Assembly (NCBI GenBank): GCA_051362555.1
Contig: CM120647.1
Coordinates: 18,204,651-18,268,650, forward strand
Direction of reading: 5' to 3'
Origin: Lingula anatina
Lineage: Eukaryota; Animalia; Brachiopoda
Length of the DNA: 64,000 nt
Of the stretch, positions 415 to 43,415 are shown in pieces. The notes under the pieces were generated by a model. It had not been told where the DNA came from. It saw only the letters and a list, made by a program, of their open reading frames with translations, and searched no databases. Numbering within the stretch: position 1 is the stretch's first letter; every line of letters begins with the position of its first letter. Both the position numbers and the translations under genes were made by a program.

Positions 415-1235
415 TGTCAGATCAAGAAACCGATATTCATCATTGGACCGGCTCGCTCTGGGACGACCTTCCTTCTGAATCTACTATACGAGGATCCTGG
501 TAACACTTCACCCAGATATTACGAGACGATGCACCCTGTGGAGGAGGTGACGGTAGAGGGGAAAGAACGAAGACTTATGACCGAACAACGAGCATTGGGT
601 ATTCTCATTTTCTGTTTTTAATCCAAAAAATGGCTACATAATAAAATAAAGGTAGAGCGCTTTAGCTACTCGTACGTTGCCATCCCATTGTAAAATTTAA
701 AGAGATAATTGGCGATTGTATTGTTTTTTTTTTTTCTATCTGTAGTTCTTTAGGCTTAACGTCTAACAATTTTTAAAGATTTCGATTTTTAGGAGGAATA
801 TTTAACAAAATGTCCAATTTAAATCTTTGAATGGGGCTTGTGTCTTTTCTTTTTATCTGCTACTGTGTTTAATAATAAGGTGATTACATGTACTCAGTGT
901 GATCACTTACAATATCCGCCTTTTCCACAAATAAAAATGCCTATTGAACCGTACTAAAATGTTAGATTTATATCAAATTCTCTTGTTTTATACATAGCCG
1001 CGGTGTACAAGGAGATGCCGGAAATGAAAGCTCAGCATTATATACACGCTGACAGAGCGTACGAGTGCTACCATCTAATGGACCAAATGGGGCTGTTTAA
1101 GAACTTCCGGTTACTCACAGGAAACTTCCAGGAATACGAGGCATGGCAAATAACGCTGACCAAGGATCAAATGGTGGAAGTTTACCGATTCCATAAATTG
1201 CAAATGCAACTCATCCTTTTGGGAAGAAGCAAAGG

Positions 1236-1273
<38 letters not shown>

Positions 1274-4200
1274 TGTGTGTGTGTGCGTGTGTGTGTGTGT
1301 ATTTGTGTGAGTGTAGCCATGTGAGTGCGCAGTGGCGGATTTCGGAGGTGGGGTCAGGGGGGCTGTTTTCCCTCGATTTCTGAAAAAAATTACCTCTTGA
1401 AATTTGAATTTTGACTAGCTGAATCATAGTTCTAAACCGTACCAAATGGCACCGTTCGCCCTCTATATACCAAGAGTAGTATAAGTAAGTCGTTTTCGAC
1501 CTGCATTTTGGAACGGGGCTATATACTTTCAATGTAATTTTTTTTAGTGAACCTTGAACCTTTTACGGGGCAGTATAATTTTAATGTAATTTCTTAGTGA
1601 CCCCTGAAGCAGAAATGAGGCAAGCGAATTTTAATGACGATCATTTTAGTGTGAATGAGGGACGAGCAAATTCTAATAATGATTCAATAAAACCTAGTAG
1701 GAGTTTTTTTTTAAGAATAAATATAATTGTATAGCGAGCTAAGAAGCGTAAGGAAGGAGGTATTTCTTATGTAATTGTATAGCGAGCAAAGAAACGTAAA
1801 GGAGGGGTTTGTATGGTTATTTTTAGCTATATTTAATTTCAGGAGTTATTGGAAAAAGTTTTTGATTATTTATTTATTGAAAAGGCAATTTGGAACCCTT
1901 TTTTTCTAGAAATGCGCAGAAGAATGCGTTTGGTGCGCCCTCACCCGTCTCGTGTTTGTGAATATACAGCTGAATGCGCTAAGGCTTGCGTGAGCTAGAA
2001 ACCTCTTGAAAATACAATGCATCTAAGCGGTCTGGGCCAACCATGCAGAAAATTGATTTTGTCATTTCTGATGTCTCCTAGCTGACCCGTGATATGCTTA
2101 CAAAGGAAAGTTCTAGAATATTTTCGGGAATCATTGCAATAATTAAGACACAGAGGGAGTTTTAGAATATACTGGAACTTTGAAAAGTTTTTTTTTTTAA
2201 TATAAAAATCATAGACACCTAGGTTTCTGCACCTCACATACCGGCAATATATCAAAAGTATTATTGTATGCGCAGTGAACCTATGCAGTCTGCGCCAGCC
2301 ATGCGGTAAATTGATTTTGCTATCACTGATGTCTCTGAGCTGACCTGTGATATGTTCGCAAAGAAAAGTTCTAGAATATTTTGGGAAATATTGCAATAAG
2401 ACACAGAGGGAGTTTTAGAATATACTGGAACTGTGAAAAGTTTTTTTTTTTTTTTTGAAATATTAAAATCATAGACGCCTAGGTACATGCACTTCACATA
2501 CTGGTAACATATGAATATTATTTATTGTATGCGCAGTGCACCCAAGCAGTCTGCGCCAGCCATGCAATAAATTGATTTCATATGCTAGTACTGGCTATAT
2601 ATGAATAGTATTTGTTATACTACACACGTGCATCAGACCTAAGCGGCCTGTGCCAGCCATGCAATAAATTGATTTCATATACCTGGACTGAGAATATATC
2701 AATAGCATTTAATGTACAGGGTGTATTAGGTACTGCTTAACTCGTGTTAATACATCGTTCAAAAATTTGATCTGTAAAGACCCATTCTGCTCTGCGCTAT
2801 GCATGTGTTTTTCTCTGCACAAGCACTCTTATGAATTCTCATAAAAATATATATATATTTCGCATTTTAGAATTGTAAAATCTTATGAATTATGAAAATT
2901 GAAATCGTTACGAATATAAAACTCGAAATACGAATTCATACAATAAGTGAATTTTGGTATTTTGCATTTTTACAAAACGCAAATTTTGAATTGCACAATT
3001 TATTATTTCTTACGAATCTTATTTATTTTTCAAACGAAGTACTGTACCTCACAAAGCTTTTGATCACTACCGTGACCTTAGCCATTCGTTGTGAACATCA
3101 TCTCACATAAATCATTTTACTATGACCTATAAGTTTAATTTAGTTGTAGTATAATAGAAAATAAAATCAAACATGTAGAATTCATAACAGAAAATATAAT
3201 ATGTGTAATGTTGGTAATTGATATTTATATGAATAAAGAATGCGGAGACCTTTGTAGACTGACACGAAGAACGAAAAATGTACTGTGCTTTCTACTTCGC
3301 GTAGCAACTAAAGTGGAAGATCGTCACATGCTTCTATACACCACAATGGTGACACTTTGAATGGTACTGGTTGTATATGTTTGCTGACCAGCTTTCTGCA
3401 TTATTCGAGTAAAATGGGGACATGCCTGGACAACATTCACAATTTAAACAAAAAAATTTTCATATACATTTAAAGGTTCTTTCAAAGACTTTCTCTATGG
3501 CAATTTTTCCTTTATCCGTCAAAGCACGAGTGCCAACCCCGGCGAAATCATGTGTGAGTTCTGGCACACCTGGATATAATTTAAACATTCTTCGTACATC
3601 ATCATACTTGTACCATTGACATGATCCTTCCTCTCTCACAGTCCCCTCATTTTTAAAAGAATCAAAAACATAGACGAGTTTATTACTGTCCACTGCCAGT
3701 TGCACGGCCCATCCTGTTCCCCCATCCACCATTTTGTTCCCGACAATTTTTCCCACAGCAAAAACAGCATTGGAATTTTTCACCTGATACCAGTTACGTT
3801 GAAGTAAACGGTCAACAAAAGATTTGCCCGTGGGAAATCGTCTGCGTAGTGAAACATTGGCTTTTAACAAGTGCACATTAGAATCATTTAGTTCATTTTT
3901 ATTCAGAACTTTTCTAATACATGTCACTCCCGTTGGCCCCACCAGAATGGTTGACATACAAAGCTGGTGTGTTGACAGTTTGCTGTTGATTGAATATACT
4001 TTGAGTCAAATTTTAACTGTCGTCTGGAGATGACCCCCGTTCTTCTGCAGCTCTAAGCAGTTCTTTGTATTCGACATCCTGAGAATGAAATGAACTAGAC
4101 ATCTTCCTGTTTTTGCAGTGTGAATAAAAATGTTAACACAGCCTGGAATATGTGATGATAATCGGTTATTGCCTGGAAAAATGAATGGCCGTATGAAATG

Positions 4201-7200
4201 TTTAGCTGGAATGAAATTTCCAACGTAGACACAGAGCAATATTGTATTTACCTAGGGGAAATTATTTCCTTTAGCACGGCTGTCAGTGTGCAGAGTATTT
4301 ACTGAACGAGATAGACTTGGGATCAGCGAGACCTCCTTTGTTGTAAAGTCTCCTTATATTTTAGCGACTATAAACACTGTCAGCAACAGTAGACTTGAAT
4401 AGATGTGGTTCTGCTCGACGTGTAACATTGGAATATAAAATGCATATGCACAATAGTTTGTTGCCTGACAGGTGAAGTCAACCACGATGTCCAGCGCAGT
4501 CACAATGCGCTTAGTGAGAACCAAACACAGTGAGACTTAATGCCTCAACGGCGTCGAACGCAGTAACATCACATTGCAGTCTACGCTCGTCTAAAAAGAC
4601 CCTTCGTATTCAAACACACATAATATAAGATATTCTGTTGAGTCACGAATCTGGAATATTCCTATTATTTTCCGAATTTCAATAGAACATTCCATAACAT
4701 AATACTCAGAAAAGAGATCTGGGACATTCCTATTATCTTTTTAGCCGGTTTTAACTGGTTTTCGGATATTGTATAACCGCTTCTTAATCAACATTTCGAT
4801 AGACACGTTTTATTATACAATTAAAAAAAACATTCCATAGCATAATACTAAGAAAAAAGATCTGGAATATTCCTATTATCTTCGGAATTTCAATAGAAAA
4901 TTCCATAACATAATACTAATACTCGAATATTCCTATTATTTTCCGAATTTCAATAGAACATTCCATAAAATAATACTAAGAAAAGAGTTGAGGCACGGAT
5001 CTGGGACATTCCTATTATCTTTACAGCCGGTTTTAACCGTTATTTTATTTTATTATTATTATTTTTTTTTGAAAAAAGAAAATGTTGAGTAATTAATTTA
5101 CACTGCGTATACATATCCCGTAATTCAAAGGACACGGGCAGGCAAAATGGATCACTCAAAATTAGTGACAGTGAATTGGTCGCACATTTAGAACAGGTCA
5201 AAACCGAAAGCGACGTCCACCACTTACAAACTTTTGAAAAACAAGATTTTATTTTGCCAAAGATGGCCACTGTCTTATCGTTTAGTCACGGATATTGTTT
5301 ATTTTTTCTTTATTCAAAGGCCAAGTTTGAAATGATTTATTACATAATTATTTGAAGGAAAATTTCAAAGTCATCATGTTTTGCTGAAAGAATTACAGAG
5401 CCATTTTTTTTTTTTTTTTTTTGCCAAAGATGGCCATTGTATTATGGTTGCTATAATTCACTTCAAACATCAGTCCCCACTGTACCAGTGTTATGTACTA
5501 TGCTTGAAACAACCTGTAGGTAATTCTAATGATGACATTTCTGAGTTACGAGGTCTAAGGAATCTATTGCTCACTACTGTTTTTATCGTGTACGCTACTA
5601 CGACCAGTCCTAGGCTGATCAAAGCTCCTACGGTGCCAGTTAAACCTTCTGAAAAAATTAAAAACAAAAAAGTACGCAAATTAAGCAGTGTCATTTGTGG
5701 CTCAGCCACCGAATCATGTATGATTTAATTTATGTCAAAGTCTCTAGGTTCCACATAAGTAATTGTACTGCGTGTATTATATATATCTGATTAGTGTGAT
5801 CTACTCTTGAATTAAGTTTTACTAATCTTCACAACAAACAGTAAAGCACGCACTCGTCTCCACTGCACCATATTATGTACTGGTACTATGCGTAAAATGT
5901 CCTTGAAGTCTGCTTATGTAGGGAATTCTAATGATGACAGTTCTAAGTTACCAGGTCTAAGGGATCTATTGCTCATTATTGCTCGTTTTTATCTTGTACG
6001 CTGCCACAACTAGTCCTAGGCTGATCAAGCTCCTACGGTGATAGCTAAACCATCTGATAAAAATAGTAAAAATCAAAACATTGTATGCAAATTAAACAAT
6101 GTCATTCATGGCTCACATAAGTATTTGTACCGCTTGTATTATATATCTGATAAGTGTAAAACACGCACATTGTAGGAAACCTCTGAGTCACGAAGCTGGA
6201 ATATTCTTAAGACATAATATCTATTTTACTTATCTGGGATATTCTCTCTTTGTCAGTAGGAAAACGCAGAGTCACGGATCTGTAACATGTAGAATAATTT
6301 GGAATTATGAAAAAAATCTCCGTCTTTGCATAGAAATAATCAGACACGTCTGGGTATCATATGTTTGTCAAGCGGATTTGCAAATGTACAGAATAAATTA
6401 GTGTCTGGTACACACGCGTCTGTCAGGCGAATTTGCACATGTCAAAAGTATTTAGTGTTGAGGTGAAATGAATATTGTATTTGAACGGACAAAGCAGTCA
6501 GCTGGTATACTGCTGTTTAGCAATAATGAATGGCAAAATCTGTTTATTGACAAGGTAGAACACGGACATTTTACAATGTCATTACATCTTAGTGACACTC
6601 ACACAATGCATTATTTTTACTAACCATTTGGTCGTTCTTTTGTATCAATAAATCAGTTTATGGTTATTTATTTCAATATTTGTATGTTTAATAAGAACAT
6701 ACTTATAAACTGTGCAATTCAGTCATTGTCAACTGCACCATAGGTTGAGTTTTATGGACAGCAACTACGCGCCACAATATACTTTACAACAACAATATTT
6801 TTCTGCAAAAGGAATTTTATTCTGCTCACACGTAATACAACGAGTTGGATATGCGACCACAGTGTCCCCTGCTCTGTCTACCCTCAGTCGCTCCTTTGAA
6901 TGGCTCTGTTAGACCTACACGTCTACTTTCCTGACTATGAATGCGGCAAAACGCTACATTTTCATAATAACGAAATTAGGGTGACAGGTGGTTCATATCT
7001 CACGCCATGGTTAGATGTTTTGATCAACATTTACTTCATTATTAGAAACACTGATTCTCGACCTTCGACTTATAATTGTGATTTTCCCTGTTCTTTGATT
7101 ATCCGTATGCATTCTACAAAAAAGTGAATTTTGAATTGTAAATCTTATAAATTATGAAAACTGAAATGTTTAGAAAAATAAAGTTTAAAATACGAGTTCA

Positions 7201-10200
7201 TACAAAAAAGTGAATTTTGGCATTTTGCATTTTTACAAAACGCGAATTTTGAATTGCACAATTTATTAATACTAACGAACCTTATTTATTTTTCAAATGA
7301 AGTACTGTTCCTCACAAAGCTTTTAATCACTACCGGGACCTTCCTTATTTGCATCATCTCACATAAATCCTTTTACTAATGACCGATAAGTTTAATTAAG
7401 TTGCAGTAGAATAGAAAACAAAATCAAAGTAGATGCAGAACTCGTAACAGAAAATATAATATTTGTAATATTGATAATTGATATTTATATGAGTAAAGAA
7501 TGCAGAGACCTTTGTAAAATAGACTGACACGAAGAACGAAAATGTATTGTGGTTTCTACTTTTCGTAGCAACTAAGGTGGAAGATTACACTATCGCCACC
7601 AGCTTCTATACACCACAATGGTGACACTTTGAATAGCACTGAATGGACGGTTGTATTTGTTTGCTGACCAGCTTTTTGCGTTATTTGAGAAAAAAAGGGG
7701 GGGGGGCATGCCTGGACATGTCATGACTCCTCTTTCTTCAATCTTCCTCGTCAGGGGGACCCCCCAAAACTATGAAACGGAAAGGGACGGTAAAGGGGAA
7801 ATGGGTCTTCCTCGTCAGGGGGACCCATTTCCCCTTTATGCCCCCCCCCCCCTTTTTTTTCTCAAATAACGCAAAAAGCTGGTCAGCAAACAAATACAAC
7901 CGTCCATTCAGTGCTATTCAAAGTGTCACCATTGTGGTGTATAGAAGCTGGTGGCGATAGTGTAATCTTCCACCTTAGTTGCTACGAAAAGTAGAAACCA
8001 CAATACATTTTCGTTCTTCGTGTCAGTCTATTTTACAAAGGTCTCTGCATTCTTTACTCATATAAATATCAATTATCAATATTACAAATATTATATTTTC
8101 TGTTACGAGTTCTGCATCTACTTTGATTTTGTTTTCTATTCTACTGCAACTTAATTAAACTTATCGGTCATTAGTAAAAGGATTTATGTGAGATGATGCA
8201 AATAAGGAAGGTCCCGGTAGTGATTAAAAGCTTTGTGAGGAACAGTACTTCATTTGAAAAATAAATAAGGTTCGTTAGTATTAATAAATTGTGCAATTCA
8301 AAATTCGCGTTTTGTAAAAATGCAAAATGCCAAAATTCACTTTTTTGTATGAACTCGTATTTTAAACTTTATTTTTCTAAACATTTCAGTTTTCATAATT
8401 TATAAGATTTACAATTCAAAATTCACTTTTTTGTAGAATGCATACGGATAATCAAAGAACAGGGAAAATCACAATTATAAGTCGAAGGTCGAGAATCAGT
8501 GTTTCTAATAATGAAGTAAATGTTGATCAAAACATCTAACCATGGCGTGAGATATGAACCACCTGTCACCCTAATTTCGTTATTATGAAAATGTAGCGTT
8601 TTGCCGCATTCATAGTCAGGAAAGTAGACGTGTAGGTCTAACAGAGCCATTCAAAGGAGCGACTGAGGGTAGACAGAGCAGGGGACACTGTGGTCGCATA
8701 TCCAACTCGTTGTATTACGTGTGAGCAGAATAAAATTCCTTTTGCAGAAAAATATTGTTGTTGTAAAGTATATTGTGGCGCGTAGTTGCTGTCCATAAAA
8801 CTCAACCTATGGTGCAGTTGACAATGACTGAATTGCACAGTTTATAAGTATGTTCTTATTAAACATACAAATATTGAAATAAATAACCATAAACTGATTT
8901 ATTGATACAAAAGAACGACCAAATGGTTAGTAAAAATAATGCATTGTGTGAGTGTCACTAAGATGTAATGACATTGTAAAATGTCCGTGTTCTACCTTGT
9001 CAATAAACAGATTTTGCCATTCATTATTGCTAAACAGCAGTATACCAGCTGACTGCTTTGTCCGTTCAAATACAATATTCATTTCACCTCAACACTAAAT
9101 ACTTTTGACATGTGCAAATTCGCCTGACAGACGCGTGTGTACCAGACACTAATTTATTCTGTACATTTGCAAATCCGCTTGACAAACATATGATACCCAG
9201 ACGTGTCTGATTATTTCTATGCAAAGACGGAGATTTTTTTCATAATTCCAAATTATTCTACATGTTACAGATCCGTGACTCTGCGTTTTCCTACTGACAA
9301 AGAGAGAATATCCCAGATAAGTAAAATAGATATTATGTCTTAAGAATATTCCAGCTTCGTGACTCAGAGGTTTCCTACAATGTGCGTGTTTTACACTTAT
9401 CAGATATATAATACAAGCGGTACAAATACTTATGTGAGCCATGAATGACATTGTTTAATTTGCATACAATGTTTTGATTTTTACTATTTTTATCAGATGG
9501 TTTAGCTATCACCGTAGGAGCTTGATCAGCCTAGGACTAGTTGTGGCAGCGTACAAGATAAAAACGAGCAATAATGAGCAATAGATCCCTTAGACCTGGT
9601 AACTTAGAACTGTCATCATTAGAATTCCCTACATAAGCAGACTTCAAGGACATTTTACGCATAGTACCAGTACATAATATGGTGCAGTGGAGACGAGTGC
9701 GTGCTTTACTGTTTGTTGTGAAGATTAGTAAAACTTAATTCAAGAGTAGATCACACTAATCAGATATATATAATACACGCAGTACAATTACTTATGTGGA
9801 ACCTAGAGACTTTGACATAAATTAAATCATACATGATTCGGTGGCTGAGCCACAAATGACACTGCTTAATTTGCGTACTTTTTTGTTTTTAATTTTTTCA
9901 GAAGGTTTAACTGGCACCGTAGGAGCTTTGATCAGCCTAGGACTGGTCGTAGTAGCGTACACGATAAAAACAGTAGTGAGCAATAGATTCCTTAGACCTC
10001 GTAACTCAGAAATGTCATCATTAGAATTACCTACAGGTTGTTTCAAGCATAGTACATAACACTGGTACAGTGGGGACTGATGTTTGAAGTGAATTATAGC
10101 AACCATAATACAATGGCCATCTTTGGCAAAAAAAAAAAAAAAAAAATGGCTCTGTAATTCTTTCAGCAAAACATGATGACTTTGAAATTTTCCTTCAAAT

Positions 10201-13200
10201 AATTATGTAATAAATCATTTCAAACTTGGCCTTTGAATAAAGAAAAAATAAACAATATCCGTGACTAAACGATAAGACAGTGGCCATCTTTGGCAAAATA
10301 AAATCTTGTTTTTCAAAAGTTTGTAAGTGGTGGACGTCGCTTTCGGTTTTGACCTGTTCTAAATGTGCGACCAATTCACTGTCACTAATTTTGAGTGATC
10401 CATTTTGCCTGCCCGTGTCCTTTGAATTACGGGATATGTATACGCAGTGTAAATTAATTACTCAACATTTTCTTTTTTCAAAAAAAAATAATAATAATAA
10501 AATAAAATAACGGTTAAAACCGGCTGTAAAGATAATAGGAATGTCCCAGATCCGTGCCTCAACTCTTTTCTTAGTATTATTTTATGGAATGTTCTATTGA
10601 AATTCGGAAAATAATAGGAATATTCGAGTATTAGTATTATGTTATGGAATTTTCTATTGAAATTCCGAAGATAATAGGAATATTCCAGATCTTTTTTCTT
10701 AGTATTATGCTATGGAATGTTTTTTTTAATTGTATAATAAAACGTGTCTATCGAAATGTTGATTAAGAAGCGGTTATACAATATCCGAAAACCAGTTAAA
10801 ACCGGCTAAAAAGATAATAGGAATGTCCCAGATCTCTTTTCTGAGTATTATGTTATGGAATGTTCTATTGAAATTCGGAAAATAATAGGAATATTCCAGA
10901 TTCGTGACTCAACAGAATATCTTATATTATGTGTGTTTGAATACGAAGGGTCTTTTTAGACGAGCGTAGACTGCAATGTGATGTTACTGCGTTCGACGCC
11001 GTTGAGGCATTAAGTCTCACTGTGTTTGGTTCTCACTAAGCGCATTGTGACTGCGCTGGACATCGTGGTTGACTTCACCTGTCAGGCAACAAACTATTGT
11101 GCATATGCATTTTATATTCCAATGTTACACGTCGAGCAGAACCACATCTATTCAAGTCTACTGTTGCTGACAGTGTTTATAGTCGCTAAAATATAAGGAG
11201 ACTTTACAACAAAGGAGGTCTCGCTGATCCCAAGTCTATCTCGTTCAGTAAATACTCTGCACACTGACAGCCGTGCTAAAGGAAATAATTTCCCCTAGGT
11301 AAATACAATATTGCTCTGTGTCTACGTTGGAAATTTCATTCCAGCTAAACATTTCATACGGCCATTCATTTTTCCAGGCAATAACCGATTATCATCACAT
11401 ATTCCAGGCTGTGTTAACATTTTTATTCACACTGCAAAAACAGGAAGATGTCTAGTTCATTTCATTCTCAGGATGTCGAATACAAAGAACTGCTTAGAGC
11501 TGCAGAAGAACGGGGGTCATCTCCAGACGACAGTTAAAATTTGACTCAAAGTATATTCAATCAACAGCAAACTGTCAACACACCAGCTTTGTATGTCAAC
11601 CATTCTGGTGGGGCCAACGGGAGTGACATGTATTAGAAAAGTTCTGAATAAAAATGAACTAAATGATTCTAATGTGCACTTGTTAAAAGCCAATGTTTCA
11701 CTACGCAGACGATTTCCCACGGGCAAATCTTTTGTTGACCGTTTACTTCAACGTAACTGGTATCAGGTGAAAAATTCCAATGCTGTTTTTGCTGTGGGAA
11801 AAATTGTCGGGAACAAAATGGTGGATGGGGGAACAGGATGGGCCGTGCAACTGGCAGTGGACAGTAATAAACTCGTCTATGTTTTTGATTCTTTTAAAAA
11901 TGAGGGGACTGTGAGAGAGGAAGGATCATGTCAATGGTACAAGTATGATGATGTACGAAGAATGTTTAAATTATATCCAGGTGTGCCAGAACTCACACAT
12001 GATTTCGCCGGGGTTGGCACTCGTGCTTTGACGGATAAAGGAAAAATTGCCATAGAGAAAGTCTTTGAAAGAACCTTTAAATGTATATGAAAATTTTTTT
12101 GTTTAAATTGTGAATGTTGTCCAGGCATGTCCCCATTTTACTCGAATAATGCAGAAAGCTGGTCAGCAAACATATACAACCAGTACCATTCAAAGTGTCA
12201 CCATTGTGGTGTATAGAAGCATGTGACGATCTTCCACTTTAGTTGCTACGCGAAGTAGAAAGCACAGTACATTTTTCGTTCTTCGTGTCAGTCTACAAAG
12301 GTCTCCGCATTCTTTATTCATATAAATATCAATTACCAACATTACACATATTATATTTTCTGTTATGAATTCTACATGTTTGATTTTATTTTCTATTATA
12401 CTACAACTAAATTAAACTTATAGGTCATAGTAAAATGATTTATGTGAGATGATGTTCACAACGAATGGCTAAGGTCACGGTAGTGATCAAAAGCTTTGTG
12501 AGGTACAGTACTTCGTTTGAAAAATAAATAAGATTCGTAAGAAATAATAAATTGTGCAATTCAAAATTTGCGTTTTGTAAAAATGCAAAATACCAAAATT
12601 CACTTATTGTATGAATTCGTATTTCGAGTTTTATATTCGTAACGATTTCAATTTTCATAATTCATAAGATTTTACAATTCTAAAATGCGAAATATATATA
12701 TATTTTTATGAGAATTCATAAGAGTGCTTGTGCAGAGAAAAACACATGCATAGCGCAGAGCAGAATGGGTCTTTACAGATCAAATTTTTGAACGATGTAT
12801 TAACACGAGTTAAGCAGTACCTAATACACCCTGTACATTAAATGCTATTGATATATTCTCAGTCCAGGTATATGAAATCAATTTATTGCATGGCTGGCAC
12901 AGGCCGCTTAGGTCTGATGCACGTGTGTAGTATAACAAATACTATTCATATATAGCCAGTACTAGCATATGAAATCAATTTATTGCATGGCTGGCGCAGA
13001 CTGCTTGGGTGCACTGCGCATACAATAAATAATATTCATATGTTACCAGTATGTGAAGTGCATGTACCTAGGCGTCTATGATTTTAATATTTCAAAAAAA
13101 AAAAAAAAACTTTTCACAGTTCCAGTATATTCTAAAACTCCCTCTGTGTCTTATTGCAATATTTCCCAAAATATTCTAGAACTTTTCTTTGCGAACATAT

Positions 13201-15019
13201 CACAGGTCAGCTCAGAGACATCAGTGATAGCAAAATCAATTTACCGCATGGCTGGCGCAGACTGCATAGGTTCACTGCGCATACAATAATACTTTTGATA
13301 TATTGCCGGTATGTGAGGTGCAGAAACCTAGGTGTCTATGATTTTTATATTAAAAAAAAAACTTTTCAAAGTTCCAGTATATTCTAAAACTCCCTCTGTG
13401 TCTTAATTATTGCAATGATTCCCGAAAATATTCTAGAACTTTCCTTTGTAAGCATATCACGGGTCAGCTAGGAGACATCAGAAATGACAAAATCAATTTT
13501 CTGCATGGTTGGCCCAGACCGCTTAGATGCATTGTATTTTCAAGAGGTTTCTAGCTCACGCAAGCCTTAGCGCATTCAGCTGTATATTCACAAACACGAG
13601 ACGGGTGAGGGCGCACCAAACGCATTCTTCTGCGCATTTCTAGAAAAAAAGGGTTCCAAATTGCCTTTTCAATAAATAAATAATCAAAAACTTTTTCCAA
13701 TAACTCCTGAAATTAAATATAGCTAAAAATAACCATACAAACCCCTCCTTTACGTTTCTTTGCTCGCTATACAATTACATAAGAAATACCTCCTTCCTTA
13801 CGCTTCTTAGCTCGCTATACAATTATATTTATTCTTAAAAAAAAACTCCTACTAGGTTTTATTGAATCATTATTAGAATTTGCTCGTCCCTCATTCACAC
13901 TAAAATGATCGTCATTAAAATTCGCTTGCCTCATTTCTGCTTCAGGGGTCACTAAGAAATTACATTAAAATTATACTGCCCCGTAAAAGGTTCAAGGTTC
14001 ACTAAAAAAAATTACATTGAAAGTATATAGCCCCGTTCCAAAATGCAGGTCGAAAACGACTTACTTATACTACTACCAAGTTTTTTCATGGCCCTTCTGC
14101 GGCCCCGAATCCCAAACCACTGGGGGGTCAGCTATGTATCCCCGGATCCCCTTCAAATTATCCTGGATCCGCCCCTTGTGCGTGTGTCCTATTTGTCATA
14201 ACGTTTTCTTTTTACTTCAAGTTGAAAGTCATATAATCGTAAATGTAAGACTTTTTTATATTTTATTTTCTGTAATAACTAAAATGAAGGTTTGTCAATA
14301 AAAGGCATATTGAATTATTCTACTCTGTTTGTGTAAACCTCTGAACTCCGGTGTTAGTTCTAATACAGTCGTATTTTATTAATGATATAATGGTAAACAA
14401 AATAACATTATTAAACCAATCATGTTAATGATGGAGCAAGTCGTTAATAAAAAAACACACTGTTTGAGTATTTGTTATTTCAGATTCATTTGAAAATAAC
14501 CAACAGCTCGTTTTCAAGGAGTCCACTCATGCTATGAACCTGGAGGCAATACTGACGGTTTACCCAGACGCTCTCTTCATCAATACTTACCGTGATCCCT
14601 GCGAGGCAACGGCATCCAATATGTCTCTCTGTGAGGCCTGTATGATAAGTCTAGGGTATGAGCCAAAGGACATAGATTTAGGACTCATTGGCCAAGATAA
14701 ACTACGATGCCCGCTGGTCAACGGTGGTAATGAGATGGTGAAATTTCGAAAGAGTCACCCAGAAGAAGAACATCGATTTTGCGATGTAGATTACAAAGAT
14801 ATTGTTGGTTCTCCCATGTCTGTAGTGAAGCAAATCTACAAGTTTTTTGGTTTGAGGTTGACATCGGAAGGGGAAGCCAAGATGAGCGCCTATGTCAGAG
14901 AACATCCTCAAAACAAATATGGCCGCCATAAATACGATTTGAAGCGCTATAAGATGACAGAGGAGGAAGTGATGGAATATCTTAAAGAATATGTTGGATT
15001 TTATAAATCACGACAATAA
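415..15019 (+). CDS. Sulfotransferase (Sulfotransfer_3-like), copy 1, 5'-partial. Exons 415-598, 998-1234, 14484-15019; exon 1 lies upstream of the window
   Basis: 5'-PSB motif PIFIIGPARSGTT, 3'-PB motif TYRDP..A..S and C-terminal KYGRHKY. All junctions are GT-AG, and exon sizes 184/237/536 nt match the other three copies. Intron 3 is about 13.2 kb because of the palindromic insertion. Confidence 0.9.
1235..1312. repeat. (GT)n microsatellite beginning at the intron 3 donor
   Basis: Direct observation; equivalent runs begin at 19239, 24379 and 30999. Confidence 0.95.
2019..2690. repeat. Diverged tandem repeat in the left arm (about 260-bp unit twice, plus two shorter partial units); mirrored at about 12860-13530
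   Basis: Recurring GCCA(A/G)CCATGC..(T/A)AAATTGATTT near 2036, 2295, 2555 and 2652; GACACAGAGGGAGTTTTAGAATATACTGGAACT occurs twice. Confidence 0.85.
3460..3957 (-). CDS. 165-aa intronless phage/virus-like protein, probable SLOG (DprA/YpsA-related) fold; left-arm copy
   Basis: Motif order RNWYQVKNSNAVFAVG - VDGGTGWAVQLA - KLVYVFD - FAGVGTR - GKIAI resembles, from recall only, SLOG-like domains in bacteriophage proteins. No database search was run. Confidence 0.6.
   Translation of the reverse strand: MSTILVGPTGVTCIRKVLNKNELNDSNVHLLKANVSLRRRFPTGKSFVDRLLQRNWYQVKNSNAVFAVGKIVGNKMVDGGTGWAVQLAVDSNKLVYVFDSFKNEGTVREEGSCQWYKYDDVRRMFKLYPGVPELTHDFAGVGTRALTDKGKIAIEKVFERTFKCI
4641..5040. repeat. Cluster of about 60-75-bp imperfect repeats (ATATTCCTATTATTTTCCGAATTTCAATAGAACATTCCATAACATAATACT); mirrored at about 10510-10910
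   Basis: At least three full and two partial units are visible. Confidence 0.85.
7710..7837. other. 128-bp asymmetric spacer at the palindrome axis with a 17-bp perfect stem-loop and a 21-bp direct repeat
   Basis: Stem 7791-7807 pairs with 7822-7838, loop 14 nt; TCTTCCTCGTCAGGGGGACCC at 7742-7762 and 7806-7826. Confidence 0.9.
11593..12090 (+). CDS. 165-aa phage/virus-like probable SLOG-fold protein; right-arm copy
   Basis: Translation identical to 3460-3957 on the minus strand. Confidence 0.6.
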   Translation: MSTILVGPTGVTCIRKVLNKNELNDSNVHLLKANVSLRRRFPTGKSFVDRLLQRNWYQVKNSNAVFAVGKIVGNKMVDGGTGWAVQLAVDSNKLVYVFDSFKNEGTVREEGSCQWYKYDDVRRMFKLYPGVPELTHDFAGVGTRALTDKGKIAIEKVFERTFKCI

Positions 15020-15182
15020 TCCTAGATAGGTCCGTGAAGGATGTTCACAGCTCTAGGTAGACTTTAGTTTTGACTTAATCTGTACAATTAAGTAATATCC
15101 AGCTGGCTATATTGCGAATTCGAATTATTGATACCTTTTTTGGGATATATCTCAATGCTTCTTGTATTCAATGGCTTCTTAA

Positions 15183-21765: not shown

Positions 21766-24700
21766 ATGCCAGGTTTTCAAGATATATATGCGTTTTGCCT
21801 CCCATATTTCCATATTTTGCTGGACTGGGTGTACCGGGTTGTGTTTCGGACCAGACTGAGTCCTCTCACGGAGGAAAGTCTGTGGAGAAAATTCACCGTC
21901 GAGGAGCGAAGGGTTATTCTGTCAGAAGACCTCACTCGTCGATGGTGGTACGAGGGATTTTGTATTCTTTTGAAGTGTTACCGCGAAGACAAAGCGTTGT
22001 CTGTGGCAGGGAGAAAGGTTGTTGAAACAAGATGGACCGAAGTTCTTCAAAACAGACTTGCCATATCCAGACGTCTGGCATCTGTTGACATATCAAAGGT
22101 CTGTGTTTTACAATATTCGTGATCTAAGGCCCCATTCAGAGCGAGAAGAGCCGAGTGCTAGCCAGGTCGCGACTTAAATATGGCGGACCTACATGAAAGT
22201 AAGGCCGCTTAATCCTGTAATGGTCTCTCCGCCTCTCACATGCCTCCTGTCGCGTCGTCCCTGCAGGGGCACAGTAATTAAATCTCGAGATTCGACGCGA
22301 GGGGAGGCGTTTGAGAGGCGGAGAGACCATTAAAGGATTAAGCGGTCTTCTTTTCATGTAGGTCCGCCATATTTAGATTGCGGCCTAGCTAGCACTCGGC
22401 TCTTCTCGATCTGAATGGTCCCTATGCCTGGGTTCCCATCTCTTGATCGATCTAACAGGATCAGTCCATCTCCACGTGCACGGGGTCCCTCGCCAAGTTG
22501 CTTTCAGCTCATGTGGCTTATATGTCTGGGACGCCCACTAAAGCCTCAAAACGATAGTTAATTACCCCTATTAGCTTCAGAAGGCATGACAGACATCCAA
22601 GCCGCTCAAGTTAATTGCAATTAAGCGAGAATCCCCCTGGAGATAGTTTAACCCAAAGTTAGTACGATAGAGTCTGGGAATGGTCTCTTAGTTCAACATT
22701 TTTATTCGCCTTGTATTAATCCCCAATCGGGGGTACGTCGAGTAGGTAGACGGTAGGTGTTAAGACAGGAAGTACGCTAAAAATTATGTCTGGCAGGGGA
22801 CGCAGTCCCGCTGATTACGTGAATCGCACTTGGTGCCATACATTTTTGTAACAGGGTACTATAGCGCACCCTGTGGTCTGACAGCAACTCAAGTCAAGAT
22901 TGCGAGTGGGAGTGGGATGTGAGTGCGGCCCTGCACAGACAATGTTACTTAAAGAAATAACAACTCTTCGTATGAGATCCATATTCCACAATAAATGCGT
23001 TGTAAACAACAGACAGAAATATGACAGATTTCATTTTACCACCAAATAATGGTTATGGTAAATATTTTGGTAGCTGTTTTTGCCATCAGACCACGTAGAC
23101 ATTCACAGATGATTATACCTTCGTTATCATCTCTTAAGATATTAATACAAATACAAAATTTTAAGAAAACATGGACTTACTGTATATATGGTAAATTATC
23201 AAGATATTTTGGTGAAGGGTCGAAATATCATGCGTAATAATAAGATTCACCTCCACAATTAATCTCTTTCGAGTCGATTTACTACTGTTATTGATCCTTA
23301 TACACAAGACGCAGCGAAAAAGGTCTTGACGTGAAATCTTTTATCATTGAACAGTGTCAGATCAAGAAACCCATATTCATCATTGGACCGTGTCGCTCTG
23401 GGACAACTTTCCTTCTAAATCTTCTGTACCAGGATCCGAGTAATACGTCACCCAGATATTACGAGACGATGCACCCTGTGGAAGAAATTATCGTAGGAGG
23501 CAAGGAACAGAGACTTCTGACCGAACAACGAGCGTTAGGTATTCCCATCTTCTTTGTCTAAAATGTAGAAAACAAAAATAAGCTGGCCACAAAATGAAAG
23601 GAATGTTAATGTGTTAGCTATGAAGGTTCGCCATTTTGGATACATTTGGCGAAATGTCCAATTTGAAGGTTAAGCAAATACTTTTCTTATGATGCTTTGA
23701 CAACTATTTTTTATATTTTATAAATCACCACTACTAAAATACCTGAAAAATGAAAACTGGAACTATACAACGGGTTCATAGCTCGTAATTCTGTGAATGG
23801 CTTTACATAATTGCCTTGGTAATTAGGTTGAAATTTCCAGGAAATTATACTTTAGAACACAAAATGTTAACACTCATGAAGTGTAAACAAAACAATGTAT
23901 TCACTGATGGCTCAGTAAGATATTGCTCTCCCTTCATCGGCACGAATGGAATTCGCCTAATCATCTTTTAAAATGAGACTTCTGTATATCCTTTTCCTAT
24001 CTCCAGGATTTAAAAGCAAAGTGCATATATCTGCCAAGAATCCAAGAATTCTCACTTACAACATTTGCCTACACCCCCCCCCCCCTCGCAAAAAAAAATC
24101 GCTAACAATTGACTTCTATCACCCCTTCTTGTTTTATATAGCCACGGTTTACAAGGAGATGCCTGAAATGAAAACTAAGCATTACATACACGCTGACATG
24201 GCGTACGAGTGGTACCATCTGATGGACCAAATGGGGCTCTTTAAGAGCTTCCGGTTTTTCACAGGGAACTTCCAGGAATACGAGGAATGGCGAAAAACGC
24301 TGACCAAGGACCAAATGGTGGAAATTTACCGATTCCATAAATTACAAATGCAACTCATCCTTTTGGGAAGAAGCGGAGGTGTGTGTGAGCGTGTGAGTGT
24401 GTGCATGCCTGCCTGTGTGTGTGTGTATGTGTGTGTGTGTGTGTGTGTGTTTGCGTGTTCTATTTGTCGTAAAATATATATTTAACTTCAAAATCTTCCA
24501 ATCTCTACTAACAGATTTTTTAATTTCCATGACTGCTGAATCATATGTCTAACAAAAAAAGACGCTGAACTGTGTCTTAACTGTGCTAAATGCTTTTGTG
24601 TAAACCTTTGAAATGCAGTCTTAGATCGTTAACAACCGTATGCATGCATACCTGTGAATGCAAAATGTTAAACAAAATAGCAATGCAATGCTAATGTTTG

Positions 24701-27059: not shown

Positions 27060-30000
27060 ATGTCAAGTTTTCAAGATATATACGCGTTTTGCCTCCCATA
27101 TTTCCATATATTGCTGGATTGGGTGTACCGCGTTGTGTTTCGGACCAGACTGAGTCCTCTCACGGAGGAAAGTCTGTGGAGAAAATTCACCGTCGAGGAG
27201 CGAAGGGTTATTGTGTCAGAAGACCTCACTCGTCGGTGGTGGTACGAAGGATTTTGTTTACTTTTGAAGTGTTACCGCGAAGACAAAGCGTTGTCTGTGT
27301 CAGGGAGAAAGGCTGTTGAAACAAGATGGACAGAAATTCTTCAAAACAGACTTGCCATATCCAGACGTCTGGCGGCTGTTGACGTATCGAAGGTCTGTGT
27401 ATTACAATATATTTTTGCTCTAAGTTCTACATTTTTTATTCACCTTGCATGCATAGTTGACCTTTAATTGTTTATGTAGTGCAGAAGCTCGTGTGAATAC
27501 TGCTCAGCTTAAATCCAGGGTAAAGACTCTCGAACAACGAGAGGAGGTACATTATGACCCAATTTTTATATACCTGGACTACCTGTAACCAGGTCAATAC
27601 AAATGCATTGAAATACCTAAATGGTATTTTGCAGCACATGAGGAAACTGACTTATTGAACTGTAAAAAAGGGTGCGTCTGTCCCAAAATCGTAAGGCTTT
27701 ATTGTATAGGAACTAACTGTCTCAGATATTTATATTGATATGGACGTCAGGGAGTTTGAGAGAATCATTGCAACCCGATACAGGATGTCCTCACACGACC
27801 TGACAGGCCCTGCGTCTCCTTAAAGGGTCAGAAATGTATTTGTGATACCGGTGAAATCCAAGCAGTAGAACATGTTTTGTGTTTTTGTTCTGTGGCAAGC
27901 ACTATACGCAAGGACAATCCCGAGTTAGATTTTAGCACAGTAGAAAATCTATGGAGAGGCGGACCTATGCGCGATGTGTGTCATTTGATAAATGCTGTAA
28001 ACTGTTCGCTTTCCTAATGCTAACATTATGTTGTCGTTTTATTAACACATATTAAAGCTATGTTGAATCGTCCAACTTGAGTATAATTATGATTTTGTTT
28101 TTGTTACGCTGATTATATATATTAGGTATATTCTGGGGTTGTAAAAATACTTTGTACTTAGTGGAATGAATTATCTATCTAGCTATCTATTAATTCCCAA
28201 GCCGGGGGTCCGTCGAGTAGGTACACGGTAGGTGTAAAGACAGGCAGTGCGCTAAAAAAAATAAAGGACATGTCTTGCGAGGGCCGCAGTCTCCCTGATT
28301 ACTTGAAATCGCACAGGGTGCCGTACAATTTTTATTTATTATTATTATTTTTATCATTATTACTGTTATATTTACTTTTATTTTTCATCGTTTCAGTGTC
28401 AGATCAAGAAGCCAATATTCATCATTGGTCCGTGTCGCTCTGGGACGACTTTCCTCCAAGATCTTCTGTACGAGGATCCTAGGAATACTTCACCCAGATA
28501 TTACGAAACGATGCACCCAGTGGAAGATATTATCGTAGGAGGCAAGGAACAAAGAATTTTGACCGAACAACGAGCGTTAGGTATTCCCATCTTCTTTGTC
28601 TAAAAATAAGATAAAAAATAAACTGGCCACAAAATGACAAAAATAAAATAAAATAATAATACGTCTTAGCTATGAAGGTTCGACAGTTTAGATATACAAC
28701 ATTGGTCAAAAAGGTTGTCCCACCTCCAGTATCATGTGCATTTATAATCACGTCAAAGGTGAAAATTGTTATAAATAATGATTTTCAATCCAGATACCTT
28801 AACTGACATGATTAGTGGAACAGAAAATACAAACTAAAAGTGAAGAGTTCAAAATTTAATACCATTTATTCACATTTATGACATGTACTCCCTCAAATCC
28901 GAAGTTTTTCACAGAGATTAAGAAATGTCCAGTAAATTGAAAAAACACCACCAACTGTCACCAAATTTATATGCATTTAGCATTTGGGTGTTCTCGTTAA
29001 AGGCTACGTGTCTAATAGCGTTTGTGTTGCCGCGTGCTGTAATAAAGGGTACCGGAGGAGATCAGCATTGGTCAGAATTGTGCCGGAAGTGACGTCAAGT
29101 GGTGTAAGAGGTAAAGCGGAGTGGTCATTTTAAGCTGGAGGTGGATGGAAATGAAGACGTGGACTTGGAGAAAAAAAGAAGTTATTCTAACAACACGGTA
29201 AGATAACATTTCATCTTTATTCATTTGGGGCAAAGATATTGTAGAAACAATAGGTACATGATATGAAAACGTGTCACGGAACTTGAAGGTGCAAAATCGT
29301 GCTAAATTTGCAGTCAATTTGTTTTGAAACACATGCTGCATCGACCGCCAGTGCGACAAAGAGCGTAAAGGGAAAGGAATTCCCGGAAGGCTATTAATCG
29401 TTGTCATGTGGAATTTTGACATTTATATAATCTGATATGTCCGTATCCAAGTATTTTCGGGTGTTTAATGGTATGTGCTGCAATTATAATGATGTTTTAG
29501 CGTTCTTGAAGGACCTTGTGAAAACCAGGAAGTAGTTCGTAACTAACAACTGAATCGTACCGATCTACGACTGCTGTGCAAAGATGTATCTTTTTTTAAA
29601 TATTGTGACGAATTTTTAGATCTTTATATGTCCATCTGACATGAAATTCCACACATATGATCACACTAATACACCTTTTACACCGGGGTAGCCACTAATC
29701 GGTGACAAATGCCAAGACAAAGGTAACATTCTGACGGCCTCTAATCTGAGCTAAATATCACAAGTACGTGACTGGCATTTAATGGCATCTTACAAGATCT
29801 TCCCAAAAAGATGAAAAGAGAATTCAGGTGAGCCGATCAAAAAGCTGACAGGTAATTATGACTAGCTCTAAGTTACTAATAATTGACATTATTATGCAAT
29901 ACTCAGTTGGAAAAGCGATTCTGACATATCAGATTATATAAACGTCAAAATTCCACATGACAACGATTTATAGACTCCCGGGAATTCTTTTCCTTTACGC

Positions 30001-32090
30001 TCTTTGTCGCGCTGGCGGTCGATGCAGCATGTGTTTCAAAACAAATTGACGGCATATTTAGCACGATTTTGCACCTTTAAGTTCCGTGTCACGTTTTCAT
30101 ATCATGTACCTATTGTTTCTACAAGTATTCTCTGCCCCAAATGCATAAAGATAAAATGTTATCTTACAGTGTTGTTAAAATAACTTCTTTTTTCTCCAAG
30201 CCCACGTCTTCATTTCCATCCACCTCCAGCTTAAAATGACCACTCAGCTTTACCTCTTACACCACTACACGTCACTTCCGGCACAATTCTGACCAATACT
30301 GATCTCCTCCTCCTGTAGGCGACGCGGTCTGCCCTCAACAAGGGTAATAATTTTGTTTTGTAGTATATTGTCCCATTCTTCCTCAAGAGCTTCGCGGTGA
30401 TGGTCCAGATTGTTAGCTCCTTTGCATTGCACACTCCAATTGATGTCACAGATGCTTAGTAAGGTTAATAACAGGGCTCAAAGATGGTTGCTCCATCCTC
30501 CGAACATTGTGTTTCTGCAACAAATCACTCTAATCAAGTCAAAACAATATATTCGCTGATGGGTCAATAAGTTACAGCTCTCCCTTCATATGAACAGATG
30601 GAATTCGCCTAATTATCTTATTAAATGAGACTTGTGCCTTATCTTTTTAAATTTCCTACCTTCAATATTTAAAACAGAGTTATTACTTACAGCATTTGCA
30701 AAAAATGGCCTAATTAACCCTTAGAATTGACTTCTATCAATATCTTTTGTTTTATAAATAGCCACGGTGTACGAAGCGATGCCTGCACTGAAAGCTCAGC
30801 ATTACGTACACGCTGAAAGAGCGTACGAGTGCTACCATCTGATGGACCAAATGGGGCTGTTTAAGAACTTCCGGTTTATCACAGGGAACTTCCAGGAATA
30901 CGAGGCGTGGCGACAAACGCTGACCAAGGACCAAATGGTGGAAGTTTACCGATTCCATAAATTACAAATGCAACTCATTCTTTTGGCAAGAAGCAAAGGT
31001 GTGTGTGTGTGTGTGTGTGCGCGTGCGCGCGTTTGTGTGTTTTATTTGCCGTAAAAATCCTTTCAACGTCAATTCTCTCAATCTCTGCTGAAAGTTATTT
31101 TCATTTTCCATGATTACCGAAATATATGTCTTGCAAAAAAGACACGTTGAACTGTGTCTTAACTGTGTAAAATGTTTTTGTGTAAGCCTCTTAAATGCAA
31201 TCTTAGGCTCTATCCCCATAGATTTTAGATCGATCTATCCCCGCGGGGAGTCTCACTAGATTACATTCACATAATCCGACTTAAATGTCCGTCCCGCCTA
31301 CTACAAGCTGTAAGGGGGTAATTAACTTTCGTGTCCGCCCGGCTGACAGCTATTTAGCGGGAACCCCCAGGGAGTTAGGTCGATCTAACGTAGGTCGATT
31401 TAATCTATGGAAATGGGGTGTTAGATCTTTGACAACCGTATGCATGCATACCTGTGTATGCAAAATATTAAACAAAATAGCAGCGTTAAATATTGATATC
31501 TATCCGGCCTAATGATAGAGCCAAATTTTAATTCAAGCATTTGTTTAATTCAAGATTCCCTGGAAAATAACCAACAGCTCGTTTTCAAGGAGTCCTCCCA
31601 TGCTATGAACCTGGAGGTAATACTAAAGGTGTACCCGGACGCTCTCTTTATTAACACTTACCGTGACCCCTGCCAGGCAACGGCGTCTATGAGCTCTCTA
31701 TGTGAGGGCTTAATGCTAAGTCTAGGGTTTGAGCCAAAGGACATAGATTTAGGGCTCATTGGCCAAGATATGTTTCGATCCCCGCTGATCAACGGTGGAA
31801 ATGAGATGGTGAAATTTCGGAAGAGCCACCCAGAAGAAGAACATCGATTTTGCGATATAGATTACAAAGATATTGTTGGTTCTCCCATGTCTGTAGTGAG
31901 GCAAATCTACAAGTATTTTGGCTTGAGGTTGACATCGGAAGCGGAAGCGAAGATGAGCGCTTACGTCAGGGAACATCCTCAAAACAAATATGGCCGCCAT
32001 AAGTACGATTTCAAGCGATATAAGCTGACAGAAGAGGAAGTGATGGAACATTTTAAAGAATATGTTGAATTTTATAAATCACGACGTTGA
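27060..32090 (+). CDS. Sulfotransferase copy 4, complete, 429 aa. Exons 27060-27392, 28397-28580, 30762-30998, 31555-32090
   Basis: Exon 2 read by hand as CQIKKPIFIIGPCRSGTTFLQDLLYEDP...; same exon sizes and phases as the other copies. Confidence 0.92.
27448..28187 (+). mobile_element. 5'-truncated LINE 3' end in intron 1 of copy 4
   Basis: TRYRMSSHDL and KCICDTGEIQAVEHVLCFC (ORF2 C-terminal CCHC), with an (ATCT)n-like tail. Copy 3 shows the empty site at about 22712-22720. Confidence 0.75.
29054..30310. mobile_element. Non-autonomous DNA element with about 390-bp TIRs in intron 2 of copy 4
   Basis: 29054-29441 is an imperfect inverted copy of 29923-30310 (GGAGGAGATCAG...CTGATCTCCTCC). No clear TSD. 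Confidence 0.8.
31206..31420. mobile_element. PIF/Harbinger-type MITE with TTA TSD
   Basis: TTA on both sides; paralogous empty site in copy 3 (GCAGTC TTA GATCG at about 24615-24628); same family at 47762 and 62109. Confidence 0.9.
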
Positions 32091-33176: not shown

Positions 33177-34328
33177 GGGTTTTTATGTAGAACTTATAAT
33201 TTATTAATTATCCGAGATTTACGTGCAACCGTCATCCACCCGCAGCCTTCTTTTTAGTATTCGTTTACATAAGCCGTGAATATACCAGTAGAAACCATAC
33301 AACTTGACAAACAGGTACCGGTACATATACAGAAAGAAATACGCTGATTTGAAAGCTGTTGCCAATAGTTCCATATGCATGCATATTTGATGTTTTTTAT
33401 ACTGGCATACACGACTAATGTTTAAAATCTGCAATTCCTAAGGCAGTCTACGCGTCTTGAAGACCACATTTCGTGTCATGCAGACATAAAAGAGGATTAA
33501 TGCTGCACGAGATAAGTTTTTTTTCTTAAGAATCCTTTCCCACAAACAAGTGCCAGAACCAAAGAGATTACTGAGGTAAGGATAGCCTTGAATTGCGTTG
33601 AAGTTCACAGATTGTCGAGATACTGTTAGTTGTGTAGATATCAGTTATGGTTATGTTTGTTTGTAATAAATCTCCACGATATAAATAAGTCTAAAGCCGT
33701 TAAAAGGTGCAGGCCCTTAACTACTATGTGCACCAAGACCTATAGCCAGCAACTTCAAACATTTTAATTGTGGACATTTTCCATGAGACCTTTGTGTATC
33801 GAGATCAATTTTTACTTTTACCCGATGGTTAGTTTGAACCCCCCCCCCCCACCCCCCCACCCCCAAAAAAATAAAATAAAAAAAATAAAAAAAAATAAAA
33901 AAATAAAATAAAAAAAAACAGCTTACGGGCCTGCTACATGCATAGATAATCATAATCTGGAGCTGAAACTGACAAATTCGGTTACTGTGGCATCGGCTAT
34001 TGGGTTGGCCGTCCAGGATTAATTTCAAATCAAAATCTTTATTTGACCACTCAATACAATAGGAGGATTTGATATAATCTTCTGTTCCTCTTCGTGGCTT
34101 GAAGGTGATGACAAGGAAAAAATATGACTCTAGAAATTTCAATTTCAAATAAAAAGGGAATCACATCCAAGTGGAATTCTGAATGAGACATTCTTTTTAC
34201 GATCGATTTTTGAGCGTCATCGTGTTTCTTCTGTAAAACATTACCTCCTCCACGATCATTTCAAATGTCGTAAAGCAAAGAGAGCTACGTATCTTCATTT
34301 TGAAACAAAGTTTTTTGATATGCCTTAA

Positions 34329-35453
34329 TACCCCCGTCACACTAGAAGCGAAATGAGCAAGAATGCCGTCGGAAAGACAATTCTTTGTGCGCTCCTGGAT
34401 ATTCGAAGAGCATTCTAAAAATTCCGAGTGCATTCTAAATATTTTTACCCATTCTTGTGGCATCCCGAATGTTTCTGTCATGTCAAAGACTTTCGAAGTG
34501 CATTCCAAGTGGAAATTTATCGAATGGCATTTGAACAGTATTCTAACTGCACTATGACTGCATTTTAAATATTCTCACGGCATTTCAAAGCATTCGAAAC
34601 ATTCTGATCACATTAGAGGAATATTCGAACCGACAAGTGACTTAAAGCCCCCGTCAAACTTATTCGAAATTAGTAGGAATCAAGCCGGAATTACTAAATT
34701 TAAAAATTCGTACCATATTCGGGAGAGAATTTCAAATTATCATAAAATATTACGGCTTTTATAAGAATGCCTCTGGAATACTAAGAATGCACAACGAACC
34801 CGCCTGGAATGATTCTTGCACATTCCAGGTATATTACCTCTCAAATGCAGCTCGAATGTAGTTGGAATATTGTAGTGATATTGCAATAAATTTCCTCTTG
34901 GAATGCACTTCAAAAGTTTTTGACATGACAAAAACATTCGAGCCGGCCACAAGAATGGGTAAAAATATTTGGAATGCACTCAGAATTTTTATAATATTTT
35001 TAGAATGCTCTTCGAATATCCTGGAATGCACAAATATTGTATTTCAGACGCCATTCTTAATCATTCCGCCTCTAGTGTGACGGGGATTTTATACCCCGCC
35101 AGAATGTTTCGAATGTGCCTCGGATGAGCTGAAATATTAATGTTGCCAGCAATCGAACTACACTAGTGCGCCGTTCAAAGTATATTCTAAATATTCTTAC
35201 TGCCTTCTTACAGCATTATAAATATTCCTAGTTTTCCAACTACATTCGAACTGCTTTTGAGAGCTAATGCAGTCGAAAGTGCATTCATCATTCCAGGCGA
35301 ATTCAAGCGCATTCTGAGTATTCCAACGGTACTCTTACAATAATTAAGGTCAATTTGAAATTTTTCCCCGAATGTGGTGTGAATTTTAAAAGTTCTTCGT
35401 TCAGGCTCATTCTTTTTTATTCCTGCTGATTCCTAATAAGTGTGACGGGGGTA
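34329..35453. mobile_element. Composite Harbinger-like non-autonomous element with TAA TSD
   Basis: TIR TACCCCCGTCACACT / AGTGTGACGGGGGTA with TAA on both sides; internal inverted block about 34331-34560 versus about 34860-35086. Confidence 0.8.
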
Positions 35454-43369: not shown

Positions 43370-43415
43370 CTTCAGGAGCTAGGGGATCTCGATTTAGTTG
43401 ACATCGCACTCAATG

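Follow-up and report, generated by a model that had tools for sequence, protein, structure and literature searches.

A 64,000-nucleotide stretch of the Lingula anatina genome (Brachiopoda; assembly GCA_051362555.1, contig CM120647.1, positions 18,204,651 to 18,268,650, forward strand), hereafter the window, contains a 12,600-bp unit that is an inverted repeat over almost its entire length. This unit is probably a non-autonomous snap-back derivative of a Maverick (Polinton) transposon, belonging to a multicopy family and relying on a helper Maverick's enzymes for its copying and insertion. Feature coordinates are collected in Table 1; statements about publications cited by PMC number or DOI refer to excerpts of them.

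Comparison of the window with itself (blastn) yields an inverted match of 6232 nt between 1475-7706 and 14074-7844 with 99.97% identity. A global alignment of the left arm with the reversed right arm contains no substitution at all and three homopolymer length differences, namely T11 versus T10 at 2188 (right arm 13362) as well as A7/A8 and G10/G12, both adjoining the centre. The longest perfect arm-arm block spans 5508 bp (2189-7696), and 9 of the 12 homopolymer runs of at least 7 letters have the same length in both arms. With a measured spacer of 128 bp the arms make up 98.98% of the unit, so that the near-perfect palindrome described in the initial annotation, differing between its arms in homopolymer lengths only, is found as claimed. 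Within the window the palindromic unit is present as one copy. Each arm in turn carries old internal duplications, and the second copy of an old direct repeat (7129-7718) reaches 9 bp into the spacer.

The unit is flanked on both sides by the hexamer ACCAAG. When flank lengths of 3-11 are compared, a direct repeat fits at length 6 only, with a chance probability of about 3.6e-4 given the composition of the window. Furthermore, the flanks are consecutive parts of a MITE (miniature inverted-repeat transposable element): the left flank matches 40599-40721 and the right flank 40768-40824 of one unsplit relative, in the same order and on the same strand, and this relative holds a single copy of the target site in the form ACCAAA. 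The 6-bp target-site duplication (TSD) and the rejoining of the MITE upon removal of the unit, both proposed earlier, are thereby borne out; together with the multicopy family and the fold-back contigs described below they back the view of a discrete mobile unit. The split MITE is located in an intron of a sulfotransferase-like gene, both flanking exons of which are open; this intron, 13,250 bp long as it stands, would measure 644 bp if the element were removed.

While its mobile nature had been recognized, the Maverick/Polinton signature of the unit had been overlooked. In vertebrates the commonest Maverick end motif is 5'-(AGT)2//(ACT)2-3', combined with perfect 6-bp TSDs (PMC8097293). The unit starts with AGTAGT and ends with ACTACT, thus carrying the first of the two end pairs (AGT)2//(ACT)2 and (AG)3//(CT)3 used to recognize Mavericks, and ACCAAG is a perfect 6-bp TSD; the ends and the TSD each have a chance probability of about 3e-4. 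Terminal inverted repeats (TIRs) are a further common property of Mavericks and Polintons, as is an intronless virus-like accessory gene, of which the unit has one (PMC8097293, 10.1101/2023.08.22.554363, PMC3014272). The length of 12.6 kb is near the lower end of the Maverick range and slightly below that of intact elements in vertebrates, which measure 12.7-24.6 kb (PMC8097293). The major difference concerns the inverted repeat itself. Published TIRs measure 46-1447 bp in vertebrate Mavericks (PMC8097293) and 100-1500 bp in the Maverick/Polinton survey of a nematode preprint (10.1101/2023.08.22.554363), enclosing a unique interior, whereas the 6.2-kb arms of the unit exceed this size fourfold, occupy 99% of its length and leave an interior of 128 bp.

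Core genes likewise set the unit apart. Six read-through frames of 1475-7839 (X at stops) match no Pfam family at E values up to 1, a Pfam search of eight stop-free frames gives no credible family, and the longest stop-free frame in the unit comprises 181 amino acids. Genes for pPolB, integrase, ATPase, protease and major or minor capsid proteins were not detected in arm plus spacer by Pfam, a search which heavily decayed remnants could escape. An apparent packaging-ATPase Walker A motif near 3940 was rejected, as it lies in a wrong frame of the cargo gene described below. The terminal 17-mer finds five matches in viral contigs, about the number expected by chance, none of which extends. Judged from its ends and 6-bp TSD, the unit is likely a Maverick/Polinton derivative and not an autonomous Maverick. 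To our knowledge no other eukaryotic superfamily combines (AGT)2//(ACT)2 ends with a 6-bp TSD. That a transposon of another kind, Foldback-like or unknown, acquired Maverick-like ends by chance would agree with the absence of any polymerase, integrase, ATPase, protease or capsid trace in the six frames and with a cargo gene without a shown Maverick link; against the exact published signature of ends and TSD, and a length just under that of intact vertebrate Mavericks (PMC8097293), we consider this very unlikely.

The single recognizable gene of the arm is a broken, intronless SLOG/DprA-like gene. An in-frame stop lies near 4020, and at 3915/3917, where the reading frame breaks, some 26 codons present in the homologue are missing; both lesions are identical in the two arms. 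Since the arms share these breaks as well as the old internal duplications, the doubling or homogenizing of the arms took place later than the decay. The closest protein is L. anatina LOC106159476 (82% identity over 150 amino acids), followed by coral proteins at about 50% identity and the remaining matches at 39-47%. The putative assignment draws on the PHROGs match to phrog_768 (DprA-like, E 3.7e-6); the Lingula homologue compared with PF12694 stays under the cut-off (E 0.19), PF02481 is annotated on 11% of the members of one Atlas cluster, and a search of solved structures with the SLOG-like protein gives nothing below E 0.45. In 80 viral loci with SLOG homologues the similarity to the arm is limited to the gene, and among 160 loci (80 viral and 80 metagenomic) only two contain a weak inverted repeat of at least 100 bp (66%). 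In the coral-like loci the neighbour is a phosphoribosyltransferase-like gene and not a Maverick gene, the Pfam scan of neighbours covering these loci only. A 787-bp deletion (3453-4241) removing the whole gene is present in family contigs of four out of four runs; many family members thus lack it. As no context ties the SLOG-like gene family to Mavericks, Maverick membership of the unit is carried by ends and TSD. Separately, numerous variants of this phage- or bacterial-type gene exist in corals (Porites names; P0003-P0013) and in Lingula, and at one locus (L081, 1052-4935) it lies near a phosphoribosyltransferase-like open reading frame (ORF). Large mobile elements of several marine animals may carry the gene as cargo.

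Part of the arm is held by 10 of 11 sequencing runs (organism A, four studies), five of which, X1, X2, X3, X7 and X9, were examined as assembled contigs rather than raw reads. The first four each supply 2052-2999 contigs, many of which stem from the host MITE on the left border; for the centre, 26 of the 66 rows of the contig table were examined. Arm contigs fill 29-30 of 30 bins in X1, X2, X3 and X7 and fall into likeness classes from 90 to >99%, which places the arm in a multicopy family of diverse members. The description of the element as very young therefore fits this copy and its subfamily, and does not apply to the family, with contigs ranging from <95% to >99% and a gene decayed identically in both arms.

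An opposite-strand joint leading from 7762 to 7802 is observed in X1, X2 and X7, that is in three samples of two studies, and is absent in X3 and X9. In X1 it is contained in a single contig of 137 nt (record 7, depth 84.8), which runs forward over 7714-7802 with six other letters and one gap and then backward from 7762 to 7714 without any deviation. Five exact inner-arm contigs of the same run have depths of 151.5-172.3 (mean 158.7), which is 1.87 times that of the loop, and two alternative arm tips with depths of 88.9 and 89.5 add up to 2.10 times the loop. The arm-to-centre depth in X1 is near 2:1, the proportions of a palindrome. In X2 a contig of 143 nt (record 14, depth 9.29) matches 7739-7827 exactly over 89 nt, crossing the window-specific 21-bp duplication; judged from its length, it would reach some 43 bp into the right arm. 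X2, which may represent one animal or a pool, contains five or more centre forms, with depths of 8.8, 9.29, 11.7, 19 and 77. The form present in the window is exact in X2 only, X1, X7 and X9 having no depth at 7812-7835. Of the 17 loose contig ends examined, out of 18, one falls within the spacer, at 7807 in X2 on a contig of depth 77. Compared by eye, it agrees in 24 of 26 letters with either copy of the internal repeat of the arm (about 7354-7379 or 3098-3123) read on the reverse strand; it appears to be another fold-back with a longer loop and not new sequence. In X9 only two short contigs cover part of 7560-7900 and X3 has no depth over the centre, but absence from contigs proves nothing. 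A further observation in X1, X2 and X7 is an alternative arm tip (7643-7713), in which 69 bp are replaced by 35 letters resembling, by eye, the centre loop; judged in the same way, this would be a further templated insertion near the axis.

Such contigs also bear on the possibility of an assembly artefact, i.e. a fold-back chimeric long read, a collapsed interior or a shared consensus which made the arms identical. Homopolymer lengths, in which alone the arms differ, are typical long-read errors, many near-identical copies exist, and there is no spanning read in evidence. On the other hand, the two flanks differ and, with their exact 6-bp duplication, restore a single MITE; fold-back contigs of three runs, at depths of 19-85, share their turning base; the odd centre of the window recurs letter for letter over 89 nt in X2; and the one loose end in the spacer resembles, by eye, arm sequence. 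Fold-back contigs in three of five runs together with the exact centre in X2 render an artefact most unlikely.

The spacer is one of several centre forms of the family. In the commoner form, seen in X1, X2 and X7, the arm extends to 7762 and is followed by a loop (7763-7802) and the reversed arm. The spacer of the window is a template-switch scar made of copied and inverted pieces of this commoner centre, and it can be read as containing three changes of strand, at which 5, 5 and 1-3 bases are shared. In the order we infer, copying would have continued for five bases into the returning arm before changing to the other strand and re-copying 7742-7762; at the second switch 7791-7802 would have been copied backwards, and the third would lead onto the reversed arm at 7709. 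The region 7680-7870, arm tips included, folds better than shuffled sequences (z -7.96). By such microhomology-guided switches the centre would keep being rearranged, in this copy from a loop of about 40 bp to a spacer of 128 bp, and the wider spacer would increase the chromosomal stability of the palindrome. In eukaryotic cells forks stall at a 12-bp spacer and do not do so frequently at a 52-bp spacer, longer spacers lower palindrome instability, and 6-kb inverted Ty elements 280 bp apart are stable in wild-type yeast (PMC7999016). The initial annotation had pointed to the instability of long palindromes with short spacers; measured against the 52-bp and 280-bp cases, a spacer of 128 bp is less unstable than this implied.

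Alternatively, the palindrome could have formed in the chromosome after insertion, if a non-autonomous Maverick with short TIRs broke and host repair copied one half over the other, the product being a dead end and not the form that moves. Substitution-free arms alongside family copies that diverge by as much as 10% or more would be explained in this way, as would the rarity of the window's centre form (one of four runs, depth 9.29) and the lack of the centre region in X3; moreover, large palindromic duplications at breaks can in yeast start from short inverted repeats (PMC7999016). Such a repair would, however, need to halt precisely at the far terminus and leave the TSD untouched, the same fold-back joint is found in three samples of two studies, and the unequal depths of the X2 centre forms fit an amplification of some of them. 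As the origin of the palindrome, repair in place is hence unlikely, while it probably explains the last step, the widening of the spacer in this copy.

Several observations weigh against a helper-dependent snap-back Maverick family. The Maverick assignment uses two sequence characters, the end motif and the TSD, and a search short of the whole genome disclosed no autonomous Maverick having such ends. In the ORFs inspected on five coral-like contigs (four of the five listed) no Maverick core gene lies beside the SLOG homologues, and no link between SLOG genes and Polintons was found in the literature. Although each run holds numerous divergent contigs and more than one centre form, the contigs of the five runs include none across the whole unit, a flank junction, the unoccupied site or a second site of insertion. 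X3 holds the family with no depth at 7710-7900, and not every member need therefore be palindromic. Beyond the 7807 junction the X2 contig with the window's centre has only 20 aligned letters, which is below the 31-letter bar, and its other 54 letters fall in the zone of the skipped repeat. X1 or X2 may be the sample from which the window came. Contig depth, in the absence of a single-copy baseline, gives no copy number and was used only as a ratio within a run.

For the snap-back Maverick derivative, which we favour, the following course is proposed. The unit consists of one terminus doubled in inverted orientation around a short loop with no other interior, as is evident from the arms, from the fold-back contigs in three of five runs and from the ratio of 1.87 in X1. 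While an already decayed Maverick derivative was being copied by strand displacement, the polymerase would turn onto the new strand and run back to the terminus, which would yield a molecule with two identical working ends. Once released, a single strand of this molecule would fold back as a hairpin of 6.2 kb, corresponding to the "racket" of the Polinton model with almost no head. In that model annealing of the TIRs is followed by excision of the element, its copying by pPolB and an integration that creates a new TSD (10.64898/2026.07.28.741278, Fig. 4C legend), and a whole-length palindrome would satisfy it with a near-perfect stem. The protein-primed polymerase and the integrase of a putative helper would then copy the hairpin and insert it with a 6-bp duplication. 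A pure terminal repeat with a tiny loop is what the racket or panhandle model would allow.

Foldback elements (FB/Galileo) and MITEs are likewise non-coding, consist mostly of inverted repeat and are moved in trans; unlike the present element they have other ends and TSD lengths, their arms are usually modular and far shorter, and they are not known to be linked to protein-primed replication. Hairpin or palindromic derivatives of the protein-primed yeast killer plasmid pGKL1, helper-maintained fold-back deletion forms, were reportedly described by Kikuchi et al. in 1985; these belong to a cytoplasmic plasmid and, in contrast to the element described here, are said to be neither integrated nor flanked by a TSD. 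The closest described analogue is the snapback genome of adeno-associated virus (AAV), a known defective class in which one end of a linear replicon is doubled into a self-complementary, helper-dependent molecule with symmetric and asymmetric centres, as here (PMC8235507). AAV is, however, a hairpin-primed parvovirus whose snapback genomes are described in virus particles, whereas the present element is probably of a protein-primed type and would form a dispersed family fixed in an animal germline.

No description of whole-length palindromic Mavericks was found in titles and abstract openings among the papers listed; early Polinton papers and Repbase, which were outside this scope, may hold such forms. 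The excerpts of PMC6431247 and PMC3014272 describe none, and those of PMC5465968, 10.1101/2022.07.12.499685, PMC8502044 and 10.1101/2025.10.09.676808 contain nothing on a palindromic form. Both Maverick surveys (PMC8097293, 10.1101/2023.08.22.554363) started from core-gene matches and would therefore miss such elements. The present case contributes a brachiopod host, the decayed SLOG-like cargo gene, the support by fold-back contigs from several samples and the coexisting centre forms which record successive template switches. Palindromic elements are easily dismissed as fold-back assembly errors, and the independent contigs argue for their reality. Maverick replication has been modelled but, in the excerpts examined, not observed; as the centres keep a natural record of how strands were switched, observation alone can put the model to the test. 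Multi-kilobase, near-perfect palindromes in host introns are likely to affect genome stability and small-RNA production. More tentatively, and with rather more doubt than confidence, animal Mavericks may be suggested to spawn a general class of integrated snap-back satellites of the defective-interfering type, whole-length hairpins which are copied by the protein-primed polymerase of a helper, outnumber it, record template switches of this polymerase in their centres and, where they have inserted into introns as in the present case, silence the Maverick family through double-stranded RNA of kilobase length. If this is true, snap-back satellites are the germline-inherited DNA-transposon counterpart of defective-interfering viral genomes.

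Table 1. Features of the palindromic unit and its insertion site (window coordinates).
Feature	Position	Strand	Basis
TSD, left copy ACCAAG	1469..1474	+	flank comparison
TSD, right copy ACCAAG	14075..14080	+	flank comparison
Left half of split host MITE, outer boundary approximate	1330..1474	+	by eye
Right half of split host MITE, outer boundary approximate	14075..14176	+	
Unsplit MITE relative	~40599-40824		flank alignment
Sulfotransferase-like exon preceding the element-bearing intron, open frame	997..1234	+	
Last exon of sulfotransferase-like gene, open frame	14485..15020	+	PF13469, E 6e-16
Left arm, 6235 bp, opens with Maverick end motif AGTAGT	1475..7709	+	self-comparison, arm alignment, published motif
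Right arm, 6237 bp, reverse complement of left arm, ends ACTACT	7838..14074	-	self-comparison, arm alignment
Old internal direct repeat, 83% to 7129-7718	2866..3432	+	window self-comparison
Internal tandem duplication 2015-2317 / 2273-2578, 83%	2015..2578	+	window self-comparison
Further internal duplications	4651-4755 / 4922-5037; 5515-5704 / 5917-6115		window self-comparison
Broken intronless SLOG/DprA-like gene	3463..4102	-	protein matches, PHROGs, read-through frames
Mirror copy of SLOG/DprA-like pseudogene, same breaks	11448..12087	+	
Spacer (centre), 128 bp, one of several centre forms	7710..7837	.	
21-bp segment, direct repeat at 7806-7826; arm end in commoner centre form	7742..7762	+	
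17-bp inverted repeat 7791-7807 / 7822-7838, 14-nt loop, hairpin inside spacer	7791..7838	.	

The host gene is one of at least four sulfotransferase-like paralogues arranged in tandem (14-32241), whose last exons start at 14486, 19533, 24752 and 31557 and are 83-88% alike in protein to the first. The window contains further inverted-repeat elements. A 1.26-kb element at 29054-30310 with 396-bp inverted arms at 93% is a Foldback-like or MITE-like insertion, and a 669-bp element at 36535-37203 with 77-bp inverted ends at 98.7% is probably a recent non-autonomous DNA transposon. A pair of related palindromic MITE-like elements, each with a spacer of about 35 nt, lies at 22127-22423 and 43375-43756, and nested inverted repeats at 34326-35451, 71-80% alike, are older.

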